A stretch of DNA of 64,000 bases from Hydrotalea sp. (GTDB lineage Bacteria; Bacteroidota; Bacteroidia; Chitinophagales; Chitinophagaceae): assembly GCA_027364735.1 (NCBI GenBank), contig DAHXOT010000032.1:17495-81494 (forward strand). Reading direction: 5' to 3'. Of the stretch, positions 8,370 to 44,093 are shown piece by piece; the first letter of the stretch is position 1; every line of letters starts with the position of its first letter. The notes beneath the pieces are model-generated. The model ran no database searches. It was given only the letters and a program-made list of their open reading frames with translations, and had not been told where the DNA came from. The position numbers were made by a program, and so were the translations under genes.

Positions 8370-9158
8370 ATGCCTTATTTTATTGATCAATGTAATAAAA
8401 AAATATGGATTAATGATAATCCAAAACGTATAATTTCATTAGTTCCTTCACAAACAGAACTATTATTCGATTTAGGATTGAATGAAGAAGTAGTAGGTAT
8501 TACAAAGTTTTGTATTCATCCAAAAGGTTGGTTGGGTAAAAAAGCTCAAATTGGTGGAACCAAAAATATTAATATCGAAAAAATAAAATCTTTACAACCC
8601 GATTTAGTAATTGCCAACAAAGAAGAAAATGTAAAAGAACAAATTGAAATGATTGAAAAATTTTGTTCTGTTTGGACAAGCGATGTAAGTAATTTAACTA
8701 CCGCTATTGAAATGATTCAATCAATTGGTATAATTACACAGCAACAGGCTAAAGCTGATAAAATAATAGCTACACTGCAAGATGATTTTTCAAAAACTAA
8801 ACCCAATTTTCCCTTATTAAATGCATGTTATTTAATTTGGAAAGACCCATACATTACAGTTGGTGGAGATACTTTTATTAATGATATGATGCATTGGTGC
8901 AGATTAAAAAATATTTTTGAAAATGATACTCGCTATCCACAAATATTACTAAAAGAAATAACTAACTTAAACTGTGAAATTTTACTTTTAAGCTCAGAGC
9001 CATACCCTTTCAAAAAACATCATATTACTTTACTACAAGAAGAACTTCCTACCGTAAAAATAGTTTTAGTGGATGGAGAAATGTTTAGTTGGTATGGCAG
9101 CAGATTATTAAAAACACCAACCTATTTTAAACAATTAAATAACCTATTGCATGCTTGA
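8370..9158 (+). CDS. TroA/BtuF-like (cobalamin/iron-chelate type) binding protein
   Basis: PKRIISLVPSQTELLFDLGL and PDLVIANKEEN motifs of class III helical-backbone binding proteins. Ends with a TGA stop. Confidence 0.6.
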   Translation: MPYFIDQCNKKIWINDNPKRIISLVPSQTELLFDLGLNEEVVGITKFCIHPKGWLGKKAQIGGTKNINIEKIKSLQPDLVIANKEENVKEQIEMIEKFCSVWTSDVSNLTTAIEMIQSIGIITQQQAKADKIIATLQDDFSKTKPNFPLLNACYLIWKDPYITVGGDTFINDMMHWCRLKNIFENDTRYPQILLKEITNLNCEILLLSSEPYPFKKHHITLLQEELPTVKIVLVDGEMFSWYGSRLLKTPTYFKQLNNLLHA

Positions 9159-11175: not shown

Positions 11176-12234
11176 ATGCCTAATCAGAAAATAATAAGCC
11201 TTTTAGGCGATAAAGCCGCTTATCTTTTAGAACACCAATGCGGTACCATTGATAAATCAACTTTATCATTACCCTCTCCTACTCATTTAGATGATATTTG
11301 GATAAATAGTAACCGCAACAATCAAACAATTAAAAGCTTAAATAATTTATTACATCATGGAAGATTAAATGGAACCGGTTATTGTAGCATTTTTCCCGTA
11401 GATCAAGGTGTTGAACATAGTGCAGGAGCATCGTTTGCACCCAATCCTATTTATTTCGACCCTGAAAATATTATTCAACTTGCTATAGAAGGAGGATGTA
11501 ATGGAGTAGCTTCTACTTTTGGCGTATTAGGAATTTTAAGTAGAAAATATGCTCATAAAATACCTTTCATTGTTAAAATTAATCACAACGAATTTTTAAG
11601 TTATCCTAATAGGTACGATCAAACCATGTTTGGCACCATTAAAAGTGCCTGGAATATGGGTGCCATTGCAGTTGGTGCTACTATTTATTGGGGAAGTGCC
11701 GAAAGTGCAAAACAATTAAAAGAAGTTGCCGAATATTTTGAATACGCACACGAATTAGGAATGGCCACTATTTTATGGTGTTATTTACGCAACAATGCAT
11801 TTAAGGTTGATGGAATAGATTATCATGCCTCAGCCGATTTAACGGGTCAGGCTAATCATTTAGGTGTAACACTTCAGGCAGATATTATTAAACAAAAATT
11901 ACCGGTAAATAATGGTGGATATTTAGCTACTAAACATGGAAAAACTTCGCCTTTAGTATATGAAAAATTAACCACCAATCATCCTATTGATTTAACCCGA
12001 TATCAGGTTTTAAATTGTTATAGTGGAAGAATTGGCTTAATTAATTCGGGTGGAGAAAGTAATGGTGCCTCAGATTTAAGTGAGGCAGTTTCTACTGCTG
12101 TAATTAATAAACGTGCCGGTGGAATGGGATTAATTTTAGGAAGAAAAGCATTTCAAAAATCATTTGCCGAAGGTGTAACACTACTAAATACTGTTCAGGA
12201 TGTTTATTTAGATGAATCTATTACCATCGCATAG
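11176..12234 (+). CDS. fbaB: Class I fructose-bisphosphate aldolase (FbaB/DhnA type)
   Basis: Near-colinear similarity to E. coli FbaB as I recall it: [54 protein letters not shown] and the DVYLD..ITIA C-terminus. Confidence 0.85.
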
Positions 12235-14470: not shown

Positions 14471-15559
14471 TTAAATAACAATTGGCAAAGAAATTTTAAC
14501 TAAAATTCCGCATGGCTTATTATCAGTAATTTCAATAGTCCCTTTTGCATTTTTAATAATGATATGAGCAATTGCCAATCCTAAGCCAATACCCGGATGA
14601 TGTTTTATTGGCTTTGCATCTAAAGAAAAAGGCTTAAAAGCAATTAAAGATTCTGCATCAGAATTTTTACCACAGTCGGCAATAGTAATGATGTACGCTG
14701 CTTCTTCAACTGCTGTATTGATGATTATTGGATTGCCCTTTTCTGAAAATTTAAAGGCATTATCTATTAATTCAATAAGTAAAGTTTCAAAAATATCTTT
14801 AGTTAATCGTATTCTAACATTGCCCTGTATATCACTTATTAAATCAGATTCTCGATTATACTTTTCCGAAATTATTTTGCAGGCTTTTTCTACTAATTCT
14901 TTTGTATGTACATACTCAGTTGTTGTTGATTTTAATGGTATGTTTTCTTCCTGATCACGCCAGTATTTTACTTTATTGAGTAATTGCAATAAACGATTAA
15001 TTGATTTTTCGATATAATTCATGTATTCCTGAGTGGCTATATCATCAATGGTTTTATTGCTTTTATTTTTTAATAGTTGTAGATAGCTGATGATATCATT
15101 AATAGTAGCAAAAAATTCTTGATTGGTAATAAGTGTAAATCCATTTTCTAATCGCTGCAATTTTTGTTCAAGAGGAAGATTAATTTCTTTTTTACGCATT
15201 AATCTGGTATTAATTGCATCAATTAATTGTGCCGATTTAACCGGTTTAACCAAATAATCATCGGCTCCAAAACTCATACCAGTCCTTAGATCATCATACT
15301 CCGATTTGGCAGTGAGAAAAATAAACGGTGTATTGGTATAGCCCTTTGAACGAAGTGATTCAATAAAATGATACCCATCCATATCAGGCATCATTATATC
15401 GCAAATAATTAAATCGGGTAATTCACTTTCATATTGCTGCAAGCCCTCTATTCCATTAAAAGCTGTTATTACCTCATACTCTTCAAACTCTAATATTCTT
15501 TTTAAGTTAAATAATAATGGTCGTTCATCATCAATCAGTAGTAGTTTGGTTTTTTTCAT
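14471..15559 (-). CDS. Response-regulator receiver domain fused to a histidine-kinase-like module that lacks the H-box histidine
   Basis: REC motifs are present (LLIDDE, DLIICDIMMPDMDG, KP). The C-terminal HATPase_c has the N box ELIDNAFKFS and G2 GIGLGLAIA. The H-box equivalent reads TNQEFFATIND, with Q where His is expected. Confidence 0.75.
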   Translation of the reverse strand: MKKTKLLLIDDERPLLFNLKRILEFEEYEVITAFNGIEGLQQYESELPDLIICDIMMPDMDGYHFIESLRSKGYTNTPFIFLTAKSEYDDLRTGMSFGADDYLVKPVKSAQLIDAINTRLMRKKEINLPLEQKLQRLENGFTLITNQEFFATINDIISYLQLLKNKSNKTIDDIATQEYMNYIEKSINRLLQLLNKVKYWRDQEENIPLKSTTTEYVHTKELVEKACKIISEKYNRESDLISDIQGNVRIRLTKDIFETLLIELIDNAFKFSEKGNPIIINTAVEEAAYIITIADCGKNSDAESLIAFKPFSLDAKPIKHHPGIGLGLAIAHIIIKNAKGTIEITDNKPCGILVKISLPIVI

Positions 15560-17882
15560 ATTGGATATATTTAAAATGAGTTATAAATGTGCTACCCTTT
15601 CCTTCTTCACTTTTTACTTCAATATTTCCATTGTGCATTTTAACAAACTTGTCAACAATAGCTAATCCTAATCCATATCCGTTATGCTGATCAGAATTAT
15701 CTGCCCGATAAAATGCTTGAAAAATATTAGGCATATCTTTTTCAGGAATACCAATTCCTTTGTCGGTAATAATTAGTTGAAATTCATTTTGCAAAAAATT
15801 TATCTCTACCAAAACCTCGCAATCAACAGGCGAATATTTAATCCCATTCGATAATAAATTACTTACAATATGCCAAAATAAACTAGGGTCAATCCATGCT
15901 TCCTTAGGTGTATTATAAAGTTTCAGTTGTATTTTTTCAGCTCCAAATTTTGTTTGAAACCTTGTTCGTATAATTCTCTTTGTCAATGCAACAATATCGG
16001 TTTGTTTTGGACGAAAAGGCATTTGATTTTCTTCAAATCTTCCCATAACTAAAAAGTTACGCATCATATCCGATAAGCGTTCTACTTCTTCATAAATATT
16101 TTCAAAAATTTCTTCCGATTGTTCAAATAATTCTTTATTACTTTTTTTAAGCTGCATCTCTAACAATTCGGTGCTGCTAACAATGGTAGAAAGAGGTGTT
16201 CGAAACTCATGCGAAACACTTGTAATCATTTTAGATTTCATTTCGTGTAACTCTTTTTCTTTATTCAATGTTTGCTGAATTAATAATTCGGCTTCTTTGC
16301 GTGCTGTTATATCTTGAATTAAAATAGATACTCGCTTTTCGCCATTAAACATTTTTACCAAATTCATTTTAGCCAAAAACCAATTATTAACATTCCCCAT
16401 TGAATCGAGATATTCAACCGATTGGGTAGTTTCTGTAATTAGTACTTTCTTAATAGCTTTTTCTAAAATATTTCCTATTTCAATACCTTTTATAGCTGTA
16501 ATTCTTTTTCCTTTCATTAATTCTTTCGGCATCGATAACATTGTTTCATCATTACACCAAATATTTACCAAATCGAGTTGTGCATTTACTTCTAAAATAA
16601 TATCATCTAATGAAGTTACTAACGATTGTAGTTCATCTTTACTTAAAGCCAATTTATAGGCATCGTTATTAGCATTACGAATAAATTTGCTATTACTTAA
16701 GATAGAAGTGAATAATTGCCGGAAATACGAAATAACTACCGATACCTGTGGTGTAGTATTATTTATTAATAATTCGGAAGTAACCAATACGCCCATAATT
16801 TCTCCTTTTTCAACCAATATATACAATAAAAATCCTGTACTATCAATGGTAAAAGGAAATGCATTATATAACGCCACTTCGTTTCGCTGATTAATATCTT
16901 GTTGAATATTTAAACAAGTTTCTTCTAAGTAATTTAATAACCGTTGCATAGAATTTTCCTGTGCATACAACCACGAGCCTACTTGTGCAACAATTTTTAA
17001 AGCAGGGTAAGTGCCTTTCCATTCTAATTCGGCAACAAAAGAAAAAGGTGCAATACCTTCATTCTGAAAAAAAGTTAAACAAATTTCAATAGCTTTTTTG
17101 GGTGTAGCTGTTTTAATATAATTTCCTTGTGCTTCAGAAATTACTTGTAAAATATCGGCATCGGGCACAAATGAATTAGCTGATGTTTTTTGAATCCTAA
17201 TTTCATTAATCGTTATCACATATTTTCTATCAACCGATAATTTACCAAATGCTGCCATTTGAATTTTGCACCATAAGTATTTATTATTTACATCTCTAAT
17301 TCTGCACCAGGTAGTTTCAAGCGATTCATTGTTTTTAAAAAAACTTGTAAGCAAATCTTTTTCATCGGGGTGCAAAAAATCTATTACCGATTTATTTTCC
17401 ATCCAATCGGTAAAATAGCCTAATATATTTTGTACTGCGGGCGATATTCTCAATACATTTCCATCTTCATCTATACTTAATGTAAACTCACTACTTTCCG
17501 ATATTTTGGGCAATAAATGTTCACTAAAAAGTTCTTCTTTATCATTGCTTATAAAGGCTCGTATACAAAGAAATTTACTAAAAACTTCAACTAACCTAAA
17601 ATCGAATTTTACTTTATTTTTATAATACTGGTCGCGTTTATTCGATTCTGTTGTATATTTTTTAAACTGAAATGCTTTATCGTAAGAATTTTTCCAGAAC
17701 AAATAATGCTCCGATTCTTTATTCATGCAATACAATACATCATCGCCTTTTTTTATAATTGATTGATAGGTACTTTCAAAAAAAATATAGAAAGATTTAT
17801 TGCCATAAATTAGCCTACAGCTTTCGTCAATAATCCAAAATGGTTCAGCGGCATCTTCAAAAAAAGATAGAAGGTTTTCCAT
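15531..17882 (-). CDS. PAS-domain sensor histidine kinase
   Basis: Canonical H box SHEFRTPL, N box LLSNGIKYS, and G boxes DKGIGI / GYGLGLAI, with PAS-like N-terminal repeats. Overlaps the downstream REC gene by 29 nt. Confidence 0.8.
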   Translation of the reverse strand: MENLLSFFEDAAEPFWIIDESCRLIYGNKSFYIFFESTYQSIIKKGDDVLYCMNKESEHYLFWKNSYDKAFQFKKYTTESNKRDQYYKNKVKFDFRLVEVFSKFLCIRAFISNDKEELFSEHLLPKISESSEFTLSIDEDGNVLRISPAVQNILGYFTDWMENKSVIDFLHPDEKDLLTSFFKNNESLETTWCRIRDVNNKYLWCKIQMAAFGKLSVDRKYVITINEIRIQKTSANSFVPDADILQVISEAQGNYIKTATPKKAIEICLTFFQNEGIAPFSFVAELEWKGTYPALKIVAQVGSWLYAQENSMQRLLNYLEETCLNIQQDINQRNEVALYNAFPFTIDSTGFLLYILVEKGEIMGVLVTSELLINNTTPQVSVVISYFRQLFTSILSNSKFIRNANNDAYKLALSKDELQSLVTSLDDIILEVNAQLDLVNIWCNDETMLSMPKELMKGKRITAIKGIEIGNILEKAIKKVLITETTQSVEYLDSMGNVNNWFLAKMNLVKMFNGEKRVSILIQDITARKEAELLIQQTLNKEKELHEMKSKMITSVSHEFRTPLSTIVSSTELLEMQLKKSNKELFEQSEEIFENIYEEVERLSDMMRNFLVMGRFEENQMPFRPKQTDIVALTKRIIRTRFQTKFGAEKIQLKLYNTPKEAWIDPSLFWHIVSNLLSNGIKYSPVDCEVLVEINFLQNEFQLIITDKGIGIPEKDMPNIFQAFYRADNSDQHNGYGLGLAIVDKFVKMHNGNIEVKSEEGKGSTFITHFKYIQYEKNQTTTD

Positions 17883-19515: not shown

Positions 19516-19600
19516 AAAAAGAAAAGCCCCCGTTAAAGTCGAGGGCAACTTAATGTTTTCACAACGGAATAATCCTTATTGTGATTTGCTTTCAATCGTA
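19516..19600 (-). ncRNA. tracrRNA: Predicted tracrRNA (anti-repeat, nexus-like hairpin, intrinsic terminator)
   Basis: The minus strand reads AUUGAAAGCAAAUCACAAU. This is 18 nt of perfect complementarity plus one G-U to nt 1-19 of the repeat in its GTTGTGATTTGC... orientation. It is followed by AAGGAUUAUUCCGUU, then the hairpin GCCCUCG-ACUUUAA-CGGGGGC (19526-19546) and UUUUCUUUUUU. Confidence 0.7.
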
Positions 19601-19633
19601 AAAATAATTATTAAATCGATAAAATGTAATAAT

Positions 19634-22600
19634 ATGAAAAAAATTTTAGGACTTGACCTAGGAACTAATAGTATTGGATGGGCTCTGTTAAATACCAATG
19701 AGAATGGAAAACCTTGCAGTATTGCAGGAATGGGCAGCCGGATTATTCCGATGACGCAAGATGTTTTAGATACTTTTAGTGGCGGCAAACCCTTGGAGAC
19801 ACAAACCTCAGCTCGCACAGGATATCGCGGAGTACGTCGGATTCGTGAACGGCATTTGCTACGTCGTGAACGTTTACATCGCGTGTTAAATGTTTTAGGT
19901 TTCCTACCTGAACATTATGCCAACCATATTGATTTCAATAAGCATTACGGAAAATTTGTTGATGAATCTGAACCAAAACTTACATACAACAACAGACAAT
20001 TTATTTTTGCAGAGTCATTTGAGGAAATGCTGAATGACTTCAAACAATTACAACCTCAATTATTCTATACAAAGTCCAATGGAAAAGAAACCAAAATCCC
20101 ATACGATTGGACAATTTACTATTTGCGTAAGAAAGCGTTGAGCCATAAAATTGCCAAAGAAGAATTGGCATGGATAATTCTGAATTTCAATCAAAAACGT
20201 GGCTATTACCAATTGCGTGGAGAAGAGGAAGAAAGAACTGATGTTAATGAGTTCTGTGCTTTGCTGAAAATAATATCTGTTGAAAAAGGAGAGAAAGACA
20301 AAAAGAACGATAGGAAAACTTGGTACAAAATTTCTTTTGAGAATGGATGGGAATATTCTGCCACATTTACTTCTGAACCCAAATGGCTAAATACTGAGAA
20401 AGAATTTCTAATAACGGAAGAATTCGAAGAAGATGGTAGCATTAAAATAGTAAAGGATAAGAAATCAGATACAAATGGTAAAGAAAAACGAAGAATCACA
20501 CCTTTGCCATCCTTTGATGAAATTAACCTGATGAGTAAAAAAGAACAGGATAAAATTTATAAAAAAATAAAAGCAAGAACAGAAATTACAATAAGAAACA
20601 GTAATAAGACCGTCGGCAGCTATATTTACGAAAGTTTATTACAAACGCCTGCACAAAAAATACGGGGAAAATTAGTCCGTACCATAGAACGTAAATTTTA
20701 CAAAGAAGAATTAGTTGCTATTCTGAAAAAACAAATCGAAATTCAGCCGGAACTGTTTACTGAGGAGCTGTACAATGATTGTGTGCGTGAACTTTACCGA
20801 AGCAACGAAACTCAACAGCTTGTTTTGAGCAAACGTGATTTTGTCCATTTGCTTGTTGAAGACATTATTTTCTACCAACGACCGCTTCGTAGCCAAAAGT
20901 CTTCAATTGGGAATTGCACCATGGAATACCGGATATATAAAGACAAAGACAGCAATCAGATAAAGGAATACCTCAAGGCTATACCCAAATCACATCCACT
21001 TTATCAGGAATTCCGGGTTTGGCAGTGGCTATATAATCTAAAAATATATCGAAAAGAAGATGACAAAGATGTAACCGCTGAATTTTTAAAAGATGCTAAT
21101 GCCTTAGTAGCCCTTTTCGAATTTCTGATGTTGCAAAAAGAAATTGGACACAAGGATGTTCTTAAGCATTTGATTTCACCGACACTAAAAGAGAAATACC
21201 CAAATGCAAAAGCAACGGCATTCAATAAAGAAGTTGATAAGGAAATTGCAAAATACCGCTGGAACTATGTTTTTGACGATTCAAAAGAGAAGGAAGAAGA
21301 AAAATCGAAGAAATACCCCTGCAACACCACCGGTTACGAAATCAGGCGGAGGCTTGAAAAAGTAGAAAACATTCAGACAGACTTTCTCACTCCTCAGGTT
21401 GAGCAACATCTATGGCACATTATTTATTCTGTTACCGACAAATACGAGTACAAATCGGCTCTTGGTAAGTTTGCCAGAAGATACTCTATTGATGAAAATT
21501 CGTTCGTTGCGAACTTTGAAAAATTCCATCCATTTCCAAGCGAGTACGGAGCATATTCCGAAAAGGCAATCAAAAAGTTTTTACCCTTAATGAGAATTGG
21601 TAAATATTGGAATTGGGATGCTATTGATAGTAAAACACAAGAAAGAATTGGGAAAATAATTTCAGGCGAATATGATGATAACATTAAAACCAGAGTCCGA
21701 GAAAAAGCAATAAGTCTAACCGACAATAATCATTTTCAGGGTTTACCCATTTGGCTTGCAAGCTATATTATATACGATCGCCATGCGGAAGCCGATATTG
21801 CCGGAAAATGGAATTTTATTGAAGACTTAGAACAATACCTTAAAGACTTTAAACAACACTCTTTACGAAACCCCATCGTAGAGCAGATTGTGACTGAAAC
21901 ATTGCGAGTGGTACGTGATATCTGGAAGCAATACGGACAAGGTGCTAAAGACTTTTTTAGCGAAATCCATGTTGAGTTGGGACGCGAAATGAAAAACACA
22001 GCTGACGACCGCAAATGGATGACCGAACAAATGGGCAACAACGAAGCTACAAATCTACGAATTAAGTCTTTACTAATGGAGTTGAAGGAAAATACCGACG
22101 GAAAATTACCGGTTGAAAATGTTCGTCCTTACTCACCAATGCAACAAGATGCGTTGAGAATATATGAAGATGGAGTGCTAAACTCAAAGGTTAATTTACC
22201 AGAAGATATTGTCAAAATTAGCAAAACCGCCCAGCCCAGTAAAGCCGAATTGCAGCGCTATAAATTGTGGCTGGAACAAAAATATCGTTCACCATATACA
22301 GGAGAAGTCATTCCATTGGGCCGCCTATTTTCGGAAGATTATCAAATAGAACACGTTATCCCGAAATCCCGATATTTCGACGACAGTTTCAACAACAAAG
22401 TGATTTGCGAGTCAGCCGTAAATCAACTAAAAGATAAGCAGCTTGGATTGGAGTTTATAAAGAATTATCACGGCGAGAAAGTGGAATGTGGTATGTGGAA
22501 AGTAGTGGAGATTTTTACAGAGGAAGCCTATCAGACTTTTGTAAAAGAAAACTATACAAAAAATAAAGCCAAGCGGCAGAATTTGCTATTGGAAGATATT

Positions 22601-24157
22601 CCCGAAAAAATGATTGCCCGCCAAATGAACGACACCCGATATATCAGCAAGTTTATTTCGTCTCTGTTATCAAATATCGTTCGTGCTGATAAAGAGGACG
22701 ATGGTATAAACTCAAAAAATCTGATTCCGGGAAATGGGAAAATAACAACAGCATTGAAAAAGGATTGGGGAATGGACGCTGTTTGGAACGATTTGATACT
22801 GCCTCGCTTTGAACGAATGAATCAATTGACCAACTCAGATGCCTTTACCTATTGGAACGAACAATATCAAAAATTCATGCCGGTTGATTATTCTCCAGCC
22901 GATTGGAAAAGAATTGAAAAGAAAAGAATTGACCACCGTCACCACGCTATGGATGCTTTGGTAATTGCGTGTATGACAAGAGACCATGTTAATCTGCTCA
23001 ACAATCAATCAGCAAAATCGGAAACTTCAAGATACGATCTACAAAACAAATTGAGGAATAAGAGTAAAGAATCATGGTTTGATAAAAGAGCGAATAAACA
23101 AATAGAAAGGGATGTATTTAAAGAATTCAAAAAGCCTTGGGACAACTTCACACTGGATGCAAAAAACGCTTTGGAAACTATTGTTGTCAGCTTTAAACAA
23201 AACCTTCGCGTAATCAATAAAGCAACCAATAATTACCAGAAATGGGTTGAAAAGAACGGAGTTAAAGTAAAGGGAATCGTAAAACAGGAAGGAACAAACT
23301 GGGCAATACGGAAACCGATGCACAAAGAAACGGTTTCGGGCAAGGTGGTCTTAAGCCGGATAAAAGTTCCAAAAGGGAAAATACTTACAGCTACTCGCAA
23401 AAGTATTGATACGACCTTCGATTTAAAGACTATAGACTCTATTACAGATACAGGCATTCAAAAAATCCTTAGGAATTTTCTGGCATACAAAGGCAATAAC
23501 CCAGAGCTTGCCTTTTCACCAGAAGGATTGGAAGAAATGAATGCCAACATAAAACAATACAATGATGGTAAATCTCACAAACCGATTAGGAAGGTTAGGA
23601 TATTTGAATTGGGAAGTAAATTCTCTTTGGGTGAAAGAGGAAATAAGAAATATAAGTATGTGGAAGCGGCAAAGGGAACAAATTTGTTTTTTGCAATATA
23701 CATCAATGAAGCTGGTATTCGGAGTTTTGAAACTATCCCTTTAAACATAGCTATTGAACAGCTAAAACAAGGTAAAAGCCCAGTAACGGAGATAAAATTT
23801 GATGAAAAGATGAATAAGTTTACTTTACAAACTTACCTTAGTCCAAATGATCTCGTTTATGTTCCGTATCAAGATCAGAGGACTCAAAGCAGTATTACTG
23901 TGATTGATAAGAGCAGAATTTATAAATTTATTGACTCAAGTGACTCTACTGCAAACTTTATTCCTGCCACTTCCGCTTCGACAATTTTCAATCTCAACAA
24001 AAAAGATCAGGAAAAAAAGGGATTGAATTTCGGAATGCAAAATGAATTTGGAATAGGAAGTCCTCAATCAAAAAACCAAAAAGCACTTTCTGGAGAAATG
24101 ATTAAAGATGTTTGTATCAAACTAAAAGTTGATCGATTAGGCAACATCTTATTTTAG
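19634..24157 (+). CDS. cas9: Type II-C CRISPR-associated endonuclease Cas9 (1507 aa)
   Basis: RuvC-I MKKILGLDLGTNSIGWA; Arg-rich bridge helix RTGYRGVRRIRERHLLRRERL; HNH YQIEHVIPKSRYFDDSFNNKVICESAVNQLK; RuvC-III IDHRHHAMDALVIAC. Followed by cas1 and cas2, with no csn2 or cas4. The ATG at 19634 is preferred over 19553, which overlaps the tracrRNA. Confidence 0.95.
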   Translation: MKKILGLDLGTNSIGWALLNTNENGKPCSIAGMGSRIIPMTQDVLDTFSGGKPLETQTSARTGYRGVRRIRERHLLRRERLHRVLNVLGFLPEHYANHIDFNKHYGKFVDESEPKLTYNNRQFIFAESFEEMLNDFKQLQPQLFYTKSNGKETKIPYDWTIYYLRKKALSHKIAKEELAWIILNFNQKRGYYQLRGEEEERTDVNEFCALLKIISVEKGEKDKKNDRKTWYKISFENGWEYSATFTSEPKWLNTEKEFLITEEFEEDGSIKIVKDKKSDTNGKEKRRITPLPSFDEINLMSKKEQDKIYKKIKARTEITIRNSNKTVGSYIYESLLQTPAQKIRGKLVRTIERKFYKEELVAILKKQIEIQPELFTEELYNDCVRELYRSNETQQLVLSKRDFVHLLVEDIIFYQRPLRSQKSSIGNCTMEYRIYKDKDSNQIKEYLKAIPKSHPLYQEFRVWQWLYNLKIYRKEDDKDVTAEFLKDANALVALFEFLMLQKEIGHKDVLKHLISPTLKEKYPNAKATAFNKEVDKEIAKYRWNYVFDDSKEKEEEKSKKYPCNTTGYEIRRRLEKVENIQTDFLTPQVEQHLWHIIYSVTDKYEYKSALGKFARRYSIDENSFVANFEKFHPFPSEYGAYSEKAIKKFLPLMRIGKYWNWDAIDSKTQERIGKIISGEYDDNIKTRVREKAISLTDNNHFQGLPIWLASYIIYDRHAEADIAGKWNFIEDLEQYLKDFKQHSLRNPIVEQIVTETLRVVRDIWKQYGQGAKDFFSEIHVELGREMKNTADDRKWMTEQMGNNEATNLRIKSLLMELKENTDGKLPVENVRPYSPMQQDALRIYEDGVLNSKVNLPEDIVKISKTAQPSKAELQRYKLWLEQKYRSPYTGEVIPLGRLFSEDYQIEHVIPKSRYFDDSFNNKVICESAVNQLKDKQLGLEFIKNYHGEKVECGMWKVVEIFTEEAYQTFVKENYTKNKAKRQNLLLEDIPEKMIARQMNDTRYISKFISSLLSNIVRADKEDDGINSKNLIPGNGKITTALKKDWGMDAVWNDLILPRFERMNQLTNSDAFTYWNEQYQKFMPVDYSPADWKRIEKKRIDHRHHAMDALVIACMTRDHVNLLNNQSAKSETSRYDLQNKLRNKSKESWFDKRANKQIERDVFKEFKKPWDNFTLDAKNALETIVVSFKQNLRVINKATNNYQKWVEKNGVKVKGIVKQEGTNWAIRKPMHKETVSGKVVLSRIKVPKGKILTATRKSIDTTFDLKTIDSITDTGIQKILRNFLAYKGNNPELAFSPEGLEEMNANIKQYNDGKSHKPIRKVRIFELGSKFSLGERGNKKYKYVEAAKGTNLFFAIYINEAGIRSFETIPLNIAIEQLKQGKSPVTEIKFDEKMNKFTLQTYLSPNDLVYVPYQDQRTQSSITVIDKSRIYKFIDSSDSTANFIPATSASTIFNLNKKDQEKKGLNFGMQNEFGIGSPQSKNQKALSGEMIKDVCIKLKVDRLGNILF

Positions 24158-24161
24158 GTAT

Positions 24162-24755
24162 ATGCCACCACTTCTTCCCAATCAATATTATCATATATAC
24201 AACCATGCCAATGGGGATGATAATCTTTTTAGGGAAGAGGAGAATTATCGTTTCTTTTTACAACAATACCATCAACATATAGATGCTATAGCCGATACAG
24301 TTGCATGGTGTTTGATGCCTAATCATTTTCACCTGCTTGTTAAAATAAAAAACGAAGAATCGCTGCTGCAAACTTTTTCAAAGTTTGAAACTTTGGAAAA
24401 GTTGCTGTCGAAGAAATTTTCTAACCTCTTCAGTAGCTATACGCAGGCTTTTAATAAATTATATCAACGCAGGGGTTCGCTTTTTATAAAGAACTTTAAA
24501 AGAAAATAAATCACTTCTTCTCAGTATTTACAAACCCTCGTTTTATACATCCACCTCAATCCTATTAAACATGGTTTTACAAAAAAGATTTCTGAGTGGC
24601 AATGGAGTTCTTACCACTACATTCAGCATCATTTCTATGAGCTTCCATTCATCGTAAAAGGGTTTGAAAATAAAAACACTTTTCTCGAACAACATCTAAT
24701 AAAACTCAATCGTTTTAGTGAATATATCGCATTAGAGGAATCACTCACTCAGTAA
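24162..24755 (+). pseudogene. RAYT-like Y1 (HUH) tyrosine transposase, IS200/IS605 TnpA superfamily, interrupted by an in-frame TAA at 24507-24509
   Basis: YHIYNHANG...; HUH motif MPNHFHLLV; RRGSLF..NFK; then, after the in-frame stop, YIHLNPIKHGF....WQWSSYH (catalytic Tyr region). Same reading frame before and after the stop. Starts 4 nt after the cas9 stop and ends 11 nt before the cas1 ATG. Confidence 0.75.
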
Positions 24756-24766
24756 ATCATATTAGT

Positions 24767-25681
24767 ATGATAAAACGCACTCTTTGCATAGAATCTCCTT
24801 GTCATCTTAAATGCCGCAACGAGCAATTGGTAGTAAGTTATGAGCACATAAAAGGATACGAGAACAGAGAAGAAAAAACAGTAGCTATTGAAGATATTGG
24901 TATGCTTATTTTAGAGCATCAGCAAATAACCCTCTCTCATTATTTGTTAGATAAGTTGGTGGCCAATAATACAGCTGTGATTACTTGCAACGAAACCCAC
25001 CACCCCAGTGGCATGCTACTATCGTTAGAAAGCCATACCCTACAAAGCGAAAGGTTTAGGGCACAGATTGAAGCTACCGAACCATTAAAAAAACAATTAT
25101 GGCAGCAAACGGTAAAAGCAAAAATAACCAATCAGGCATTGGTGTATGAAAGATGGAATATTGCCAATACGTATTTAAAAAACACAGCACAATCGGTAAA
25201 AAGTGGCGATACAGATAATAACGAAGCAAAAGCCGCAGCGTATTATTGGAGTCATCTCTTCCCTCCTGCTTGGCAATTTTTTAGACATAGAGAATGACCA
25301 CCACCTAATAATTTATTAAACTATGGTTATGCCATTATTAGAGCCGCAATGGCAAGAGCCATAGCAGGTGCCGGATTGTTACCTACATTGGGTATATTTC
25401 ATAAAAACCGATATAATGCGTATTGTTTAGCCGATGATATTATGGAGCCTTACAGACCATTTGTTGATGTAATTGTAAGAGGAATTATAGATACAACATC
25501 GGCAGTAGCAACATTAACACAAGATACCAAAATACAACTATTAAAACTGCCTACCGTTGATGTGTTGTTGGATGGAGAAAGCAGTCCGCTAATGATTGCC
25601 ATGCAACGAACTGCCGCATCATTAGCAAAATGTTATACCGGAGAAACAAGAAAAATTTTATATCCAACATTATCATCTTAA
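24767..25681 (+). pseudogene. cas1: CRISPR-associated endonuclease Cas1 (type II) with an in-frame TGA at 25295-25297
   Basis: ORFs 24767-25297 and 25349-25681 share one frame. The continuous translation reads ...[61 protein letters not shown]..., a typical Cas1 core. Total length of 303 sense codons is normal for Cas1. Confidence 0.85.
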
Positions 25682-25700
25682 CCACGTTGTTGAAAGATAA

Positions 25701-26054
<354 letters not shown>

Positions 26055-26110
26055 CTGCCAAACAAATACACCGAGTTTTTTTTACCGGCTTCCAGAATAC
26101 AAGTAGAAAT

Positions 26111-26146
26111 AAAAAAACCATTATAACTTAATGCATAATGGTTTTT
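26111..26146. terminator. Bidirectional intrinsic terminator between the cas operon and the CRISPR array
   Basis: A7 - CCATTAT (26118-26124) - 10-nt loop - ATAATGG (26135-26141) - T5. The hairpin is flanked by an A run and a T run, so it can terminate transcripts from either strand. Confidence 0.65.
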
Positions 26147-26213
26147 AACTACGATTTTTTAAGTTCTTATTTACTTCTAAAATCCTTACCAGATAAGGCT
26201 TACCGCTTAAGCT

Positions 26214-27952
26214 GTTGTTATCAAAGATCGTAAGAACTTAAATTGAAAGCAAATCACAACAGGGCTCAGCAGGAACTTCAAAAATCTTCAGTTGTTATCA
26301 AAGATCGTAAGAACTTAAATTGAAAGCAAATCACAACGAAGATGCTGCCATACTTCACAGAGTAATGGTTGTTATCAAAGATCGTAAGAACTTAAATTGA
26401 AAGCAAATCACAACAGTTCTTCAGTGGAACTCCATTTTAATTCGTTGTTATCAAAGATCGTAAGAACTTAAATTGAAAGCAAATCACAACTATTTTCAAT
26501 CCATTCAACATTACCTGTTGGTTGTTATCAAAGATCGTAAGAACTTAAATTGAAAGCAAATCACAACAAAATAAATATATGAGTGCTATAAGTCAAAGTT
26601 GTTATCAAAGATCGTAAGAACTTAAATTGAAAGCAAATCACAACATAAATGCTTCTGTTAGCGCAGAGGCATTTGTTGTTATCAAAGATCGTAAGAACTT
26701 AAATTGAAAGCAAATCACAACGCAAAAGCGTGTCATTACAACTGCGGTGTAGTTGTTATCAAAGATCGTAAGAACTTAAATTGAAAGCAAATCACAACGG
26801 TGGCATAATAGATGACCCATCGACATACGTTGTTATCAAAGATCGTAAGAACTTAAATTGAAAGCAAATCACAACATAAATGCTTCTGTTAGCGCAGAGG
26901 CATTTGTTGTTATCAAAGATCGTAAGAACTTAAATTGAAAGCAAATCACAACTAATAATAAAATGGTCTTTTAATAGTTCTAGTTGTTATCAAAGATCGT
27001 AAGAACTTAAATTGAAAGCAAATCACAACATACAGTATTGTGCAGTGTTCAGCAAACAAGTTGTTATCAAAGATCGTAAGAACTTAAATTGAAAGCAAAT
27101 CACAACATTCTGACATCATTTTCATATCCGCTATCAGTTGTTATCAAAGATCGTAAGAACTTAAATTGAAAGCAAATCACAACTTATACAATGTGGTTAA
27201 AGTATATTCATATGTTGTTATCAAAGATCGTAAGAACTTAAATTGAAAGCAAATCACAACAAAATGACTTTCGTATTTAATGTTGCTGGCGTTGTTATCA
27301 AAGATCGTAAGAACTTAAATTGAAAGCAAATCACAACATGCTGAAGAAGTAACAGCACTTTCCTCCTGTTGTTATCAAAGATCGTAAGAACTTAAATTGA
27401 AAGCAAATCACAACATAATAGCTTGTGTCTCTGTTCTTCCTGCAGTTGTTATCAAAGATCGTAAGAACTTAAATTGAAAGCAAATCACAACAATAGTGCA
27501 ACATTTCAAACTTGCTAAAATGTTGTTATCAAAGATCGTAAGAACTTAAATTGAAAGCAAATCACAACAAACGGCCTACGCTCAAATATTCAGTCTCAGT
27601 TGTTATCAAAGATCGTAAGAACTTAAATTGAAAGCAAATCACAACTATTAGATCAAAGCGACCATCCGGCATATGTTGTTATCAAAGATCGTAAGAACTT
27701 AAATTGAAAGCAAATCACAACACTTAAATGGTTTACGTGGTAATATTCAAAGTTGTTATCAAAGATCGTAAGAACTTAAATTGAAAGCAAATCACAACAA
27801 TGCCGAAGAAGTAAGCGCTTTATCATCTGTTGTTATCAAAGATCGTAAGAACTTAAATTGAAAGCAAATCACAACAAATTGATGCAGTAAAAGAAATTCT
27901 TCAATGTTGTTATCAAAGATCGTAAGAACTTAAATTGAAAACGAATCACAAC
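26214..27952 (-). CRISPR. CRISPR array: 23 repeats of 47 nt, 22 spacers (20 of 30 nt, 2 of 29 nt)
   Basis: Repeat on the plus strand is GTTGTTATCAAAGATCGTAAGAACTTAAATTGAAAGCAAATCACAAC. In the crRNA-sense (minus) orientation it is GTTGTGATTTGCTTTCAATTTAAGTTCTTACGATCTTTGATAACAAC. Period is 77 nt, and the 29-nt spacers are at 26415-26443 and 27646-27674. The strand was assigned from tracrRNA anti-repeat complementarity. Confidence 0.97.
27906..27952 (-). repeat. Degenerate terminal CRISPR repeat (2 substitutions)
   Basis: GAAAACGAATCAC replaces the consensus GAAAGCAAATCAC. In crRNA sense, GATTTGC becomes GATTCGT. All 22 other repeats are identical. Confidence 0.95.
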
Positions 27953-28019
27953 TTCCTAATTCAATAAAAATTTTATACTTAGCTACCAACCAGTATCTTA
28001 TAAACTAAAGACTTTCCCC

Positions 28020-28027
28020 TATATTTG
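28020..28027 (+). promoter_or_regulatory. Candidate -7 box (TATATTTG) for pdhA
   Basis: Exact TAnnTTTG match 11 nt upstream of the TTG at 28039. No convincing -33 TTTG partner was seen. Confidence 0.35.
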
Positions 28028-28038
28028 CCCCTCAAAAT

Positions 28039-29043
28039 TTGAATGCTGTGGCAACAAAATTTTCTAAAGAAACTTATCTATACTGGTACGAATTAATGCA
28101 ACTGATTCGCCAATTTGAATTAAAGGCTGAAGAAATGTATAAAATGGCCGGTAAAATTCGTGGCTTCTTTCATGCATATATTGGCCAAGAAGCTATTGCA
28201 GCAGGCTGTATGACTGCAACTACGCCCGATGATCCATTTATCACCGGTTATCGCGATCATGGATTGGCCCTATCAAAAGGAACTTCACCCAATGCTTGTA
28301 TGGCCGAATTGTACGGAAAAGCTACCGGTTGTGCAAAAGGAAAAGGTGGCAGTATGCACTTTTTCGATGTTAAAAATAAATTTTTTGGAGGGCATGGTAT
28401 AGTTGGTGCTCAAATTGGTACGGGTACCGGTTTGGCTTTTGCCGAAAAATATAAAGGCACTAACAATGTAGTACTTACTTTTTTTGGTGATGGTGCTGCT
28501 CGTCAGGGTATTTTACACGAATCGTTTAATTTAGCCATGCTATGGAAATTGCCCATTGTATTTATTTGCGAAAACAATAATTATGCTATGGGCACATCGG
28601 TTGAAAGAACTTCGAATGTAATTGATATTTACAAATTAGCCGATGCTTATGAAATGCCAGCCGATCAAGCAGATGGCATGAGTGCAGAAGCTGTGCATGA
28701 ATCTATTGCTCGTGCTGTAAAACGTGCCCGAGAAGGCGATGGACCAACCTTAATTGAAATGAAAACATATCGGTATAAAGGTCATTCTATTTCCGATCCG
28801 CAAAAATATCGCAGCAAAGAAGAGGTAGATGAATATAAAGAACAAGACCCCATCAACAAGGTAATAAAAACTATTCTTGACAATAACTTTGCAACCACCG
28901 CCGATTTAAATGAAATTGATACTAAAATTAGTGCGGTTGTTGAAGCGAGTGTAAAATTTGCAGAAGAAAGTCCTTGGCCCGATGACAGCGAAGTATTGAA
29001 AGATGTTTATGCCGATGCATCAACTCCATTAACAGTAGATTAA
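28039..29043 (+). CDS. pdhA: Pyruvate dehydrogenase (acetyl-transferring) E1 alpha subunit
   Basis: YIGQEA, the TPP-binding region GDGAARQG...NL..LW.LP..F.CENNNYAMGT, and YRY.GHS.SD. The start is uncertain (TTG 28039 or GTG 28048). Confidence 0.85.
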   Translation: MNAVATKFSKETYLYWYELMQLIRQFELKAEEMYKMAGKIRGFFHAYIGQEAIAAGCMTATTPDDPFITGYRDHGLALSKGTSPNACMAELYGKATGCAKGKGGSMHFFDVKNKFFGGHGIVGAQIGTGTGLAFAEKYKGTNNVVLTFFGDGAARQGILHESFNLAMLWKLPIVFICENNNYAMGTSVERTSNVIDIYKLADAYEMPADQADGMSAEAVHESIARAVKRAREGDGPTLIEMKTYRYKGHSISDPQKYRSKEEVDEYKEQDPINKVIKTILDNNFATTADLNEIDTKISAVVEASVKFAEESPWPDDSEVLKDVYADASTPLTVD

Positions 29044-29075
29044 TTATATTTTTAAATTTTAATAATAAAACTATC

Positions 29076-29762
29076 ATGAGCGATAAAATAGATATTGTAG
29101 AAAAAGATCCGGTGTTGGTATTACAAAGTTTTTGGCAAAAAAGTGGTAAAACAGTGGGTATTGTTGTATCGCTTATCATTATTTTATTAGGAGGATGGTA
29201 TGCCTACAATCAGTATATTATAAAACCTAATGAAGAAAAAGCTGCCGATCTTATGTATAAAGCACAAGCCTATTTTGCAGTAGATTCTTCTAAATTAGTG
29301 TTAGATGGTGATGGCACCAATAAAGGTGTGCTTTATATTATTAAAAACTATAGTGGCACTAAAGAAGCTAATTTGGCAAAATATTATGCCGGTATTAGTT
29401 ATCTTAAATTGGGCAACTTTAATAAAGCCATAGAGTATTTAAAAGATTTTTCTACCGATGCCAAACAAATTCAAATGGTGGCTTATGGCTCTTTAGGCGA
29501 TGCTTATTCCGAGCTTAATAAAAAAGACGATGCCATTGAATATTACAAAAAAGCAGGTAGTACTTTTGTAGAAGACGAAAACACATCGGCAGAATATTTA
29601 TTTCGTGCAGCACTCTTATCAGAAACAAGTGGAAAAACAAAAGAAGCCGTAGCTTTATACCAAGAAATAAAAGATAAGTTTCCAAAAACAGATAAAGGCT
29701 TTCAGGCAGATAAATATATTTATCGCCTTAGCCTGCAAAAAAACGATTTAAGTACAAACTAA
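29076..29762 (+). CDS. Membrane-anchored tetratricopeptide-repeat protein
   Basis: One N-terminal TM helix followed by TPR-like repeats (YYAGISYLKLGNFNKAIEYL, GDAYSELNKKDDAIEYYKKA). Confidence 0.55.
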   Translation: MSDKIDIVEKDPVLVLQSFWQKSGKTVGIVVSLIIILLGGWYAYNQYIIKPNEEKAADLMYKAQAYFAVDSSKLVLDGDGTNKGVLYIIKNYSGTKEANLAKYYAGISYLKLGNFNKAIEYLKDFSTDAKQIQMVAYGSLGDAYSELNKKDDAIEYYKKAGSTFVEDENTSAEYLFRAALLSETSGKTKEAVALYQEIKDKFPKTDKGFQADKYIYRLSLQKNDLSTN

Positions 29763-29766
29763 ACTA

Positions 29767-30252
29767 ATGGCAACAAAAGGAAATAATATTCTTCATAAAG
29801 GCATCCCTTCCATAAAGGATGCCTTTATTGTTATTATTAAAACCGAATGGAATAATGCTATTGTAAATAAATTAGAAACAGGTGCTAAAAAAATTTTGCA
29901 ACAGCAAAACATATCCAGTAAAACAATTATTGTTCCGGGTGCTATAGAAATTCCATTTGCCATTAAACAGCATTATGCATACAGCAAAAAAATACCCGAT
30001 GCCTATATTGCTTTAGGTACTGTTATAAAAGGCGATACACCGCATTTCGATTATGTATGTAAATTTACTACCGAAGGAATTTTGCAATTGAATTTATCAT
30101 TGGATGTTCCCGTAATATTTGGAATTTTAACGGTGAATGATGAACAGCAAGCTATAGAACGCATTGGTGGCAAACATGGACACAAAGGAGAAGAAGCAGC
30201 TATTACTGCACTTAAAATGATTGCACTAAACAGAAAATTAAACAACCATTAA
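29767..30252 (+). CDS. ribH: 6,7-dimethyl-8-ribityllumazine synthase
   Basis: VPGAIEIPFA, G.VI.G.T.HFDYV and FGILT motifs. Confidence 0.9.
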   Translation: MATKGNNILHKGIPSIKDAFIVIIKTEWNNAIVNKLETGAKKILQQQNISSKTIIVPGAIEIPFAIKQHYAYSKKIPDAYIALGTVIKGDTPHFDYVCKFTTEGILQLNLSLDVPVIFGILTVNDEQQAIERIGGKHGHKGEEAAITALKMIALNRKLNNH

Positions 30253-30274
30253 TTTAATATTGTTAACTTTTTGA

Positions 30275-30994
30275 ATGAACGTACAACTATTTATTCCTTG
30301 CTTTATTGATCAGCTCTATCCTACTGTTGGTTTTAACATGATTAAGGTTTTAGAAAAAGCAGGATGCACTGTTCAATACAACGATACGCAAACCTGTTGC
30401 GGCCAGCCTGCCTATAATGCAGGTTTTTGGGGCGAAGCAAAAGAAGTATGCCATAAATTTATACAAGATTTTGAAGGGGCAGATTATATTGTTGCACCAA
30501 GTGCCAGTTGTGTAGGTTTTGTAAGAAACTATTACGGAAAGCTTTTCGATAACTCTTCTGTACATAATGAAGTAAAAGCATTATCGGCAAGAATTTTTGA
30601 ACTAAGTGAATTTTTAATTAATATTCTACAAATTTACGATTTGGGTGCAACATTACATGCTAATGCAACTTACCACCATAGTTGTGCAGCATTACGTGAG
30701 TGTAAAATAAAACAAGCTCCTTTACAATTATTAAGTAAAGTAACAGGATTACAACTTACAGAAATGGCCGACAATGAAACCTGCTGCGGCTTTGGAGGTG
30801 CTTTTGCAGTTAAATTTGAACCAATAAGTGTAGCAATGGCCGATCAAAAAATAAATAATGCATTAGCTGTTAATGCTGAAATTGTAATTAGTACCGATAT
30901 GAGCTGCTTAATGCATATTGATGGTGTTATTCAACATAAAAAAAGCAATTTAAAAGTAATGCACCTTGCAGATGTTTTAGCAAGCGGATGGTAA
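30275..30994 (+). CDS. lutA: (Fe-S)-binding CCG-domain protein, LutA/YkgE-like
   Basis: V.LFIPCFIDQ N-terminus and two Cys-rich CCG motifs (TCCGQPAYNAG; TCCGFGG.F). Confidence 0.7.
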   Translation: MNVQLFIPCFIDQLYPTVGFNMIKVLEKAGCTVQYNDTQTCCGQPAYNAGFWGEAKEVCHKFIQDFEGADYIVAPSASCVGFVRNYYGKLFDNSSVHNEVKALSARIFELSEFLINILQIYDLGATLHANATYHHSCAALRECKIKQAPLQLLSKVTGLQLTEMADNETCCGFGGAFAVKFEPISVAMADQKINNALAVNAEIVISTDMSCLMHIDGVIQHKKSNLKVMHLADVLASGW

Positions 30995-31028
30995 TTATTT
31001 TTTCATTTATACTTTTTAATTTTTCGTT

Positions 31029-31442
31029 ATGGCTTATTGGTTAGTAAAATCTGAACCGTTTAAATATAGTTGGGAACAATTTGAAAAAGATGGACAAACC
31101 TTTTGGGATGGCGTTCGTAATTATGCTGCACGAAATAATTTAAAAGCGATGAAAAAAGGAGATCTGGTATTATGGTATCATAGCAATGAAGGAATGGAAA
31201 TTGTAGGAATAGCAAAAGTGATAAAAGAATTTTATCAAGATCCAACTACCACCGAAGATGCATGGGTGGCTGTTGATTTAAAGCCATTTAAAAAATTGAA
31301 AAAAGCGGTAAGTCTTACACAAATAAAAGCCCACAATCTTTTACAACAAATGGATTTGGTTAGGTTAGGCAGGTTATCGGTTCAAACAGTTAAGGAAAAT
31401 GAATGGAAAATAATTATGGAATTAAGTGAAACAAAAATATAA
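31029..31442 (+). CDS. EVE domain protein
   Basis: MAYWLVKSEP....W......WDGVRNY.ARN.L..MK.GD, a typical EVE/PUA-like signature. Confidence 0.8.
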   Translation: MAYWLVKSEPFKYSWEQFEKDGQTFWDGVRNYAARNNLKAMKKGDLVLWYHSNEGMEIVGIAKVIKEFYQDPTTTEDAWVAVDLKPFKKLKKAVSLTQIKAHNLLQQMDLVRLGRLSVQTVKENEWKIIMELSETKI

Positions 31443-42836: not shown

Positions 42837-44093
42837 ATGAAAAATATTTTTGCATCAATCATTACTATTGGAGATGAATTATTAATTGGACAAGTAATTG
42901 ATACCAACAGTGCATGGCTTGCTCAGGAATTAAACAAAATGGGCATAAAAATAAAACATAGAATAGCCGTTGGAGATATATGGGAAGATATATGGAACGC
43001 ATTAGATGAAGAAAGTAAAAATGCAGATATTATTTTAATAACAGGCGGTTTAGGCCCAACATCGGATGATATTACTAAGCCTTTATTGTGCCAATACTTT
43101 AACGGAAAAATGATTGTGCATCAGCCAACTTTAGCATTTATAACAGATTTATTTGAAAAGGTACTGAATAGGCCAATGATTGAAAGAAATAAAAAACAGG
43201 CCGAAGTGCCCGATACATGTACCGTTCTTCCTAATGAAAAAGGAACTGCACCCGGAATGCTTTTTGAAAAAAATGGAAAACTATTTATTTCAATGCCCGG
43301 AGTGCCACATGAAATGAAATGGATTTTTTCACATCAAGCAAGTGCTTTCATCACACAAAAATATAATTCCGGATATATTGAACACAGAACACTATTAATC
43401 GGAGGTATTGGAGAATCTTTTTTAGCCGAGAAATTAATTCCTTTCGAACAACAACTCCCCTCACATATTAAGTTAGCCTACCTTCCCAATTTTGGTATGA
43501 TACGATTAAGATTATCTGCATTTAGCATTTATAAAGAAAAAATTACTGAAGAAATTAATTATCAATTTAACCTACTAAAACAATACGTGAGCGATTTTTT
43601 AATACTTGATGATGATTTACCATTAGAAGCTGTAGTAGGTAAATTATTACATAAGCAACAAAAAACTATTGCTACCGCCGAAAGTTGTACAGGAGGGTAT
43701 ATAGCTCATTTAATCACCTCTATTCCGGGTTCTTCAAATTATTTTAAAGGGTCAATTGTTGGTTATAATAATACTATTAAACACAACTTATTACATGTAT
43801 CCAATGAAACATTAAATAATGCCGGTGCCGTTAGCAAAGAAACCGTAACACAAATGGCCAATCATATTGCAAATATGATGCAAACAGATTATGCAATAGC
43901 CGTTAGCGGCATTATGGGCCCCGATGGAGGCACTGAAGAAAAACCTGTTGGCACGGTATGGATTGCTGTAACAAATAATGTAACTACAATTACAAAGCAG
44001 TTTCATTTTAGATTTGATAGAATTAGAAACATTCAACTCACTGCTACAAATGCCCTAAATTTAGTTCGTCAGTTAATTGTGGATAACAGATGA
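42837..44093 (+). CDS. cinA: Competence/damage-inducible protein CinA (MoCF-binding plus nicotinamide-nucleotide amidase domains)
   Basis: IITIGDELLIGQ..DTNS, ITGGLGPT.DD and TAESCTGG motifs. TGA stop. Confidence 0.85.
   Translation: MKNIFASIITIGDELLIGQVIDTNSAWLAQELNKMGIKIKHRIAVGDIWEDIWNALDEESKNADIILITGGLGPTSDDITKPLLCQYFNGKMIVHQPTLAFITDLFEKVLNRPMIERNKKQAEVPDTCTVLPNEKGTAPGMLFEKNGKLFISMPGVPHEMKWIFSHQASAFITQKYNSGYIEHRTLLIGGIGESFLAEKLIPFEQQLPSHIKLAYLPNFGMIRLRLSAFSIYKEKITEEINYQFNLLKQYVSDFLILDDDLPLEAVVGKLLHKQQKTIATAESCTGGYIAHLITSIPGSSNYFKGSIVGYNNTIKHNLLHVSNETLNNAGAVSKETVTQMANHIANMMQTDYAIAVSGIMGPDGGTEEKPVGTVWIAVTNNVTTITKQFHFRFDRIRNIQLTATNALNLVRQLIVDNR

Follow-up and report, generated by a model that had tools for sequence, protein, structure and literature searches.

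The CRISPR–Cas locus of a Hydrotalea strain (Bacteroidota; Chitinophagaceae) contains a cas1 gene that is interrupted by a single in-frame TGA and is otherwise complete. This nonsense allele is genuine and very recent, and it probably leaves the strain with little or no spacer acquisition and with interference retained. The stretch of DNA analysed (the window) is 64,000 nucleotides long and corresponds to positions 17495–81494 of contig C21 (DAHXOT010000032.1) in a draft genome of 2.77 Mb, 54 contigs and 32% GC (GCA_027364735.1); coordinates below are those of the window unless another contig is named.

The cas1 gene lies at 24767–25681 on the plus strand and has 304 codons with one interruption, a TGA at 25295–25297 that is followed by C at 25298 (AGA GAA TGA CCA CCA CCT AAT AAT; gagaaTGAcc at 25290–25299). 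As proposed in the initial annotation, the open reading frames on its two sides share one frame when translated across the stop: the upstream frame (24767–25297) encodes 176 amino acids, and the downstream frame, starting from the first in-frame ATG (25349–25681, plus strand), encodes 110. The joined product matched the Pfam Cas_Cas1 profile (PF01867) with 103.6 bits (E = 1.4e-29), with residues 10–243 aligned to profile positions 6–252 of 283, and each fragment alone also matched the profile, in complementary parts. The stop, at codon 177, leaves the catalytic glutamate (NNEAKAA) on its 5′ side and the histidine (GIFHKNRYN) and acidic (DDIMEP) motifs on its 3′ side; all three are retained, in agreement with the first reading of the sequence.

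The nearest solved structures to the joined product are the type II-A Cas1 proteins of Enterococcus faecalis (5XVN) and Streptococcus pyogenes (4ZKJ), to which residues 34–237 align with E about 4e-25. The Glu, His and acidic motifs (NNEAKAA, GIFHKN and DDIMEP) align with their counterparts in both structures, at positions that we take to be the catalytic ones (NNEAKAA/NREGHAA, IFHKN/LKHAN and IMEP/LMEP in window Cas1 and type II-A, respectively). The window protein differs from these enzymes in belonging to a type II-C Bacteroidota clade, in sharing roughly 30% identity with them, in being interrupted and in the residue at position 177, which is N or P in the structures. Profile match and catalytic residues are thus those of Cas1, but the frame is not uninterrupted over its full length, being broken by the TGA at codon 177, and the copy reads as a disrupted family member, either a pseudogene or a hypomorphic allele. 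It is the single cas1 that a search of the 2.77-Mb genome returned; no second copy was found. Public records annotate the two fragments as separate proteins, a split that should serve as a caution for annotators.

Orthologues identified the lost residue. Relatives were retrieved with the Cas1 protein and comprised Chitinophagaceae and other Bacteroidota. Codon 177 was GGN in all 14 orthologues that could be read at this codon in the relatives’ genomes, and GGA both in the closest, a sister species of the same genus (G001; 97% amino-acid identity, uninterrupted), and in five conspecific contigs. At the protein level, glycine occupied the position in 98/99 orthologues (48–97% identity), the remaining one having Glu; none of the 99 carried a stop at codon 177, and an in-frame stop at any position was present in one. 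The ancestral codon is GGA, and the change is a single G>T transversion at 25295. The orthologue comparison that had been called for at the outset therefore places Gly177 as the one residue replaced by the stop, before a conserved Cas1 segment as originally described. A chance juxtaposition of two reading frames is excluded, as the 97%-identical orthologue has no break in its frame and carries GGA here. In the type II-A structures the aligned N or P belongs to a short loop that precedes the conserved N..LNYGY helix, so that Gly177 is a clade-specific, non-universal constraint.

We found the same allele in public sequence data. The exact 176-residue truncated Cas1 was encoded on Logan contigs of SRR5161807, SRR5161794 and SRR5161800, two of the three contigs being 100% identical to the window over 1.0–1.8 kb. 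Intact 304-residue Cas1, with its first 176 residues equal to those of the window, was encoded in SRR5161805, SRR5161788 and SRR5161795, from the same accession series, and in the metagenome-assembled genome (MAG) GCA_027309295.1; a near-identical intact allele was present in a later run, SRR19845294 (contig L028). In the alignment the TGA always occurred within a few bases of window-type synonymous variants (AGA..CAT..AGA), within one 31-mer span, and L028 carries those same variants together with GGA. This linkage marks a real haplotype as opposed to a consensus error, and it fits a single origin. The TGA is therefore a genuine segregating polymorphism of a natural population, co-occurring with intact alleles in one series of runs. 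Support from outside the window consists of contigs, and the window genome may itself derive from one of the same runs. Metagenome contigs may also be mosaics of co-occurring strains, which makes haplotype combinations such as those of L022 and L024 unreliable; Logan contigs of 1,632 nt had identical end points and the look of a per-bubble consensus mosaic. A four-gamete argument for recombination between the cas1 TGA and a TAA in the adjacent gene (described below) was accordingly set aside: all four combinations were seen, but on contigs that look like mosaics.

Two explanations would leave cas1 intact in the cell, one by correcting the sequence and the other by reading it differently. A sequencing or assembly artefact over a true GGA codon, suggested early on as one option, would require an error at one base in a 54-contig draft; however, three other runs, each assembled on its own, gave the same truncated product, and the TGA sits with the AGA..AGA synonymous variants in one 31-mer span as a real haplotype would. 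The artefact is thus effectively refuted, and we consider it very improbable. Alternatively, UGA could be recoded in this organism (translation table 4 or 25, or selenocysteine), giving full-length Cas1. It is in keeping with this idea that the lost residue is glycine, that UGA is read as Gly in table 25 and that the genome is AT-rich (32% GC), but the rest of the genome speaks against it. Among 1,725 open reading frames of at least 200 amino acids, 1,355 ended in TAA, 229 in TAG and 141 in TGA. Inside the window, TGA had been noted as a genuine stop at 9156–9158 and 44091–44093; both triplets, and a third at 15531–15533, each end long open reading frames. The genome encodes release factor 2 (prfB), which contains an SPF motif and has a CTT-TGA-A frameshift site in its own gene. 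Trp-CCA, Gly-UCC and Gly-CCC are among the 30 tRNAs found, and none of the 30 was a tRNA-Sec or had a UCA anticodon, a soft negative as the draft clearly misses some tRNA genes; no SelA reached the 22.8-bit cut-off, the best match scoring 15.4 bits. When the whole genome was screened for stops flanked on either side by 90 or more open codons, 15 TGA cases were returned, cas1 among them. The six others that lacked an ATG within about 20 codons downstream look like adjacent genes or non-coding frames, leaving cas1 as the only TGA-split gene found, and conspecific strains have GGA. The genome uses the standard code and shows the features of neither a UGA-sense code nor a selenoprotein system; full-length Cas1 by recoding is scarcely credible.

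Two features of this genome outside the window were recorded during the same survey. The programmed +1 site of prfB (contig C20, about 11960–12000; AGGAGG..TTT CTT TGA A) has A after UGA, where E. coli has C. On the same contig, a gene for a PKD-repeat surface protein has an apparent in-frame TAG inside a repeat (stop at 16311; ...TYQTSGN*EVKLIVTSDFGC...), at a position that Tyr or Phe occupies in the other repeats; it would be the third nonsense-interrupted gene of the genome.

The age of the cas1 stop can be judged from its closest intact relative. Over window positions 19563–26241, the L028 contig of SRR19845294 differs at 3 of 6,679 bases, and G001, used as the outgroup, polarises all three. 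One is the cas1 stop itself (25295; G in L028, T in the window). Another, at 24507 (C in L028, T in the window), turns a CAA into a TAA in the gene next to cas1, and the third, at 25641, is a Gly>Val missense change found in L028 alone. The dN/dS of cas1, computed against alleles of the same species and genus, was 0.02–0.10 both before and after the stop, from which it follows that strong purifying selection acted on the gene until very recently and that it has not decayed since. On this evidence the stop is very young, one G>T step from an otherwise identical intact allele.

That youth explains the low dN/dS. Cas1 might still be made from a functional leaky stop, in which UGA-C would be read through at a few per cent by a near-cognate tRNA, probably that for Trp, giving a throttled dose of Cas1 from an allele that is kept. 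UGA-C is reportedly the weakest termination signal in the E. coli tetranucleotide studies of Poole, Brown and Tate (1995). The cas1 stop has this context, and TGAC is strongly avoided at gene ends here: as the rarest TGA context, it ends 6/141 frames against about 23 expected, an approximately four-fold depletion relative to the 16% C of the genome (binomial P = 1e-5). The depletion fits a weak terminator, and TGA-C is plausibly leaky in this organism, although the rule derives from E. coli and not from Bacteroidota, and avoidance at gene ends is no proof that useful protein comes from the cas1 stop. Elsewhere, TGA is the leaky stop, which E. coli and Salmonella occasionally read as Trp, TGA reporter read-through reaches 6% in wild-type Bacillus subtilis, and many bacterial in-frame stops have been argued to remain under purifying selection (Belinky et al. 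2021, PMC7918605). The cas1 stop resembles the stops of that study in being a single TGA-type nonsense codon in a conserved gene whose two sides both look selected; it differs in that the paper infers frequent read-through from conservation of the stop, whereas the cas1 stop is in no relative.

Other observations bear on read-through in both directions. The N or P at the Gly177 equivalent in the type II-A structures suggests that the loop may tolerate substitution, and a read-through product might retain activity; Trp would, however, probably replace a glycine that 98/99 clade orthologues keep. A hairpin is predicted about 24 nt downstream of the stop (z = −2.8 versus shuffles), which counts weakly in favour of read-through, but it lies in coding sequence common to intact alleles and so did not evolve for the stop. 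The context is weak, as at a read-through site, but the stop is shared with 0/99 orthologues, the allele is polymorphic and one base from an intact haplotype with no sign of long-term maintenance, a suppressor tRNA was not found among the 30 tRNAs, and the stop in the gene next door is TAA-A, which terminates strongly and fits plain decay of the segment. Taking these together, we regard a maintained leaky stop as unlikely. Frameshifting past the stop was considered and rejected: the sequence offers no slippery site, and in the +1 frame a TAA follows within 10 codons. A split enzyme, formed from the 176-residue N-fragment and a C-fragment re-initiated at the ATG at 25349, deserves next to no weight. 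Each piece is an open reading frame with a protein annotation of its own, but the break lies away from a domain boundary, re-initiation at 25349 would delete residues 177–194, the most conserved block of the family, and the arrangement is found in 0/99 orthologues.

The locus is that of a type II-C system, with cas9, cas1 and cas2, neither csn2 nor cas4, an adjacent array and a tracrRNA anti-repeat; the order is anti-repeat, cas9, RAYT-like gene, cas1, cas2, array. The candidate tracrRNA anti-repeat (19579–19596, minus strand), upstream of cas9, matches repeat positions 2–19 at 18/18 bases in the GTTGTGATTTGC... orientation. Further upstream of it, on the plus strand, are a GC hairpin and a T-run. 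cas9 (19634–24157, plus strand) is intact and encodes 1,507 amino acids with Pfam matches to RuvC_III (1.5e-56), HNH_4 (6.5e-19) and Cas9-BH (8.2e-09). Its start is the conserved MKKILGLDL at 19634, the mechanical open reading frame beginning at 19553; the 80 bases between the two overlap the candidate minus-strand tracrRNA. cas2 (25716–26054, plus strand; Pfam CRISPR_Cas2, 1.4e-18) is intact and identical to that of L028.

The CRISPR array (26214–27952) has 23 repeats of 47 nt and 22 spacers of 29–30 nt; 22/23 repeats are perfect and the last is degenerate (2 mismatches). No other array was found genome-wide. Spacers 6 and 9 are identical (ATAAATGCTTCTGTTAGCGCAGAGGCATTT; 26645–26674 and 26876–26905), with two unique spacers between them. 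At the cas-distal end, window spacers 19–22 and spacer 13 are common to a conspecific MAG (L115), and at the cas2-proximal end the five spacers seen in the MAG (L024) all differ from those of the window. This polarised pattern shows that integration takes place on the cas2-proximal side, with the cas2–array intergenic region (26055–26213), which adjoins the strain-variable spacers, as the leader side. With trailer-end spacers shared and leader-end spacers all different, adaptation was active in the species after the lineages split; as short-read contigs break at repeats, the comparison dates acquisition to the species and not relative to the TGA. Two Logan contigs, L118 (SRR5161794) and L119 (SRR5161788), align to window positions 26076–26260 and 27905–31097, so that the leader with the first repeat runs straight into the last repeat with the downstream flank. 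The junction is most likely an assembly collapse through the 47-nt repeat or, less probably, a real array-less variant in those samples.

Between cas9 and cas1 lies a RAYT-like gene (24162–24755, plus strand; 197 codons) of the Y1/HUH, IS200-like type, which carries the second nonsense codon of the locus, a TAA at codon 116 (24507–24509) derived from CAA (Gln116). Strain alignment shows that this codon is polymorphic as well: position 24507 is C in L028, L022, L025, L027 and G001, and T in the window, L021, L023, L024 and L026. An intact 197-residue version is present in L028, and the 115-residue fragment matches Pfam Y1_Tnp weakly (E = 3.5e-4). Among 78 related Bacteroidota loci, 10 have a homologue immediately 5′ of cas1 and in the same orientation, 8 of these copies being intact; in two further loci it follows closely after cas1. 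In the sister species G001, the gene has an 11-nt deletion and a frameshift, on account of which the RAYT-like gene may simply be decaying. A 26-nt segment of it that overlaps the TAA is similar to the CRISPR repeat (21/26, the sole genome match); we treated this as chance, with about 0.6 chance matches expected for the segment by a rough estimate and more across the 22 segments scanned.

The two nonsense codons raise the question of whether selection contributed to their spread. When the comparison was widened with flanking contigs of SRR19845294 (L111 and L116), 5 differences were found in 26.4 kb, 3 of them within the 1.5 kb of the RAYT-like gene and cas1 (binomial P = 0.0017); there was no difference across the 4.5-kb cas9. 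The other two, at 11711 (K/R) and 38560 (V/L), are both amino-acid changes in the 19.7 kb of flank, and thus all 5/5 differences between the window and the SRR19845294 strain are protein-altering. Since stop-creating changes make up 5.6–7.1% of the possible substitutions in the RAYT-like gene and cas1, the neutral probability that both changes on the window lineage (2/2) are nonsense is 0.003–0.005, in a post hoc test based on five substitutions. It is possible, and we put it forward tentatively, that inactivation of the RAYT–cas1 segment was favoured by selection, for example by avoiding the cost of self-targeting acquisition, and was not mere drift. Self-targeting spacers were examined as a driver and rejected: 0/22 spacers match the strain’s own genome beyond 20/30 bases. 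A further step would be to see the two nonsense codons as an adaptive shut-down or throttle of acquisition, with the RAYT-like HUH nuclease as an adaptation partner of Cas1 and a leaky UGA-C that leaves a trickle of Cas1 and a one-step return to GGA; we find this combination improbable.

The preferred reading is that spacer acquisition was lost recently and interference kept. As one of the options first raised for this gene, it has gained support: the allele is one G>T from an otherwise identical intact allele, dN/dS shows no decay, and cas9, cas2, the anti-repeat and array have all stayed intact. In the mechanism that we propose, termination at the TGA in place of Gly177 would release a 176-residue fragment in which the N-terminal domain and first catalytic Glu are preserved. 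Without the conserved block, the catalytic His and the acidic residues, this fragment would not be expected to integrate spacers, and the allele is therefore predicted to abolish acquisition or, at the least severe, to act as a strong hypomorph. The intact cas9, cas2, anti-repeat and 22-spacer array would keep existing immunity in place, next to a RAYT-like gene with a nonsense codon of its own, also polymorphic. We infer that integrase activity has been lost and interference retained.

Loss of the cas1–cas2 adaptation module, with effectors and arrays persisting, has occurred in many bacterial lineages and is usually ascribed to the cost of autoimmunity. The Hydrotalea locus shares with those cases intact interference genes and an intact array beside an integrase gene inactivated by simple mutation, and arrays in this species show recent polarised acquisition. 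It differs in that the loss is still polymorphic, one base from an intact haplotype, and in that a second nonsense mutation has hit the RAYT-like gene beside it. The event is of a known kind, here well documented, and involves no new mechanism; in the literature we found no specific report of a cas1 nonsense polymorphism, nor a paper that names the runs or the assembly.

Taken by itself, the allele is a newly formed pseudogene of an ordinary sort, or possibly a hypomorph. It is useful as a clean natural snapshot of a CRISPR system that is losing adaptation yet keeping interference, with mutant and intact cas1 alleles one base apart and co-occurring in one sample series. If selection repeatedly hits both genes, the HUH nuclease would be a working partner of Cas1 in Bacteroidota type II-C adaptation. 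Should the clustering of protein-altering changes in the RAYT-like gene and cas1 hold with more strains, it would provide population-genetic evidence that spacer acquisition is costly in nature, and would place the RAYT-like gene, which lies between cas9 and cas1 at about one in eight related loci, functionally on the adaptation side of these systems.
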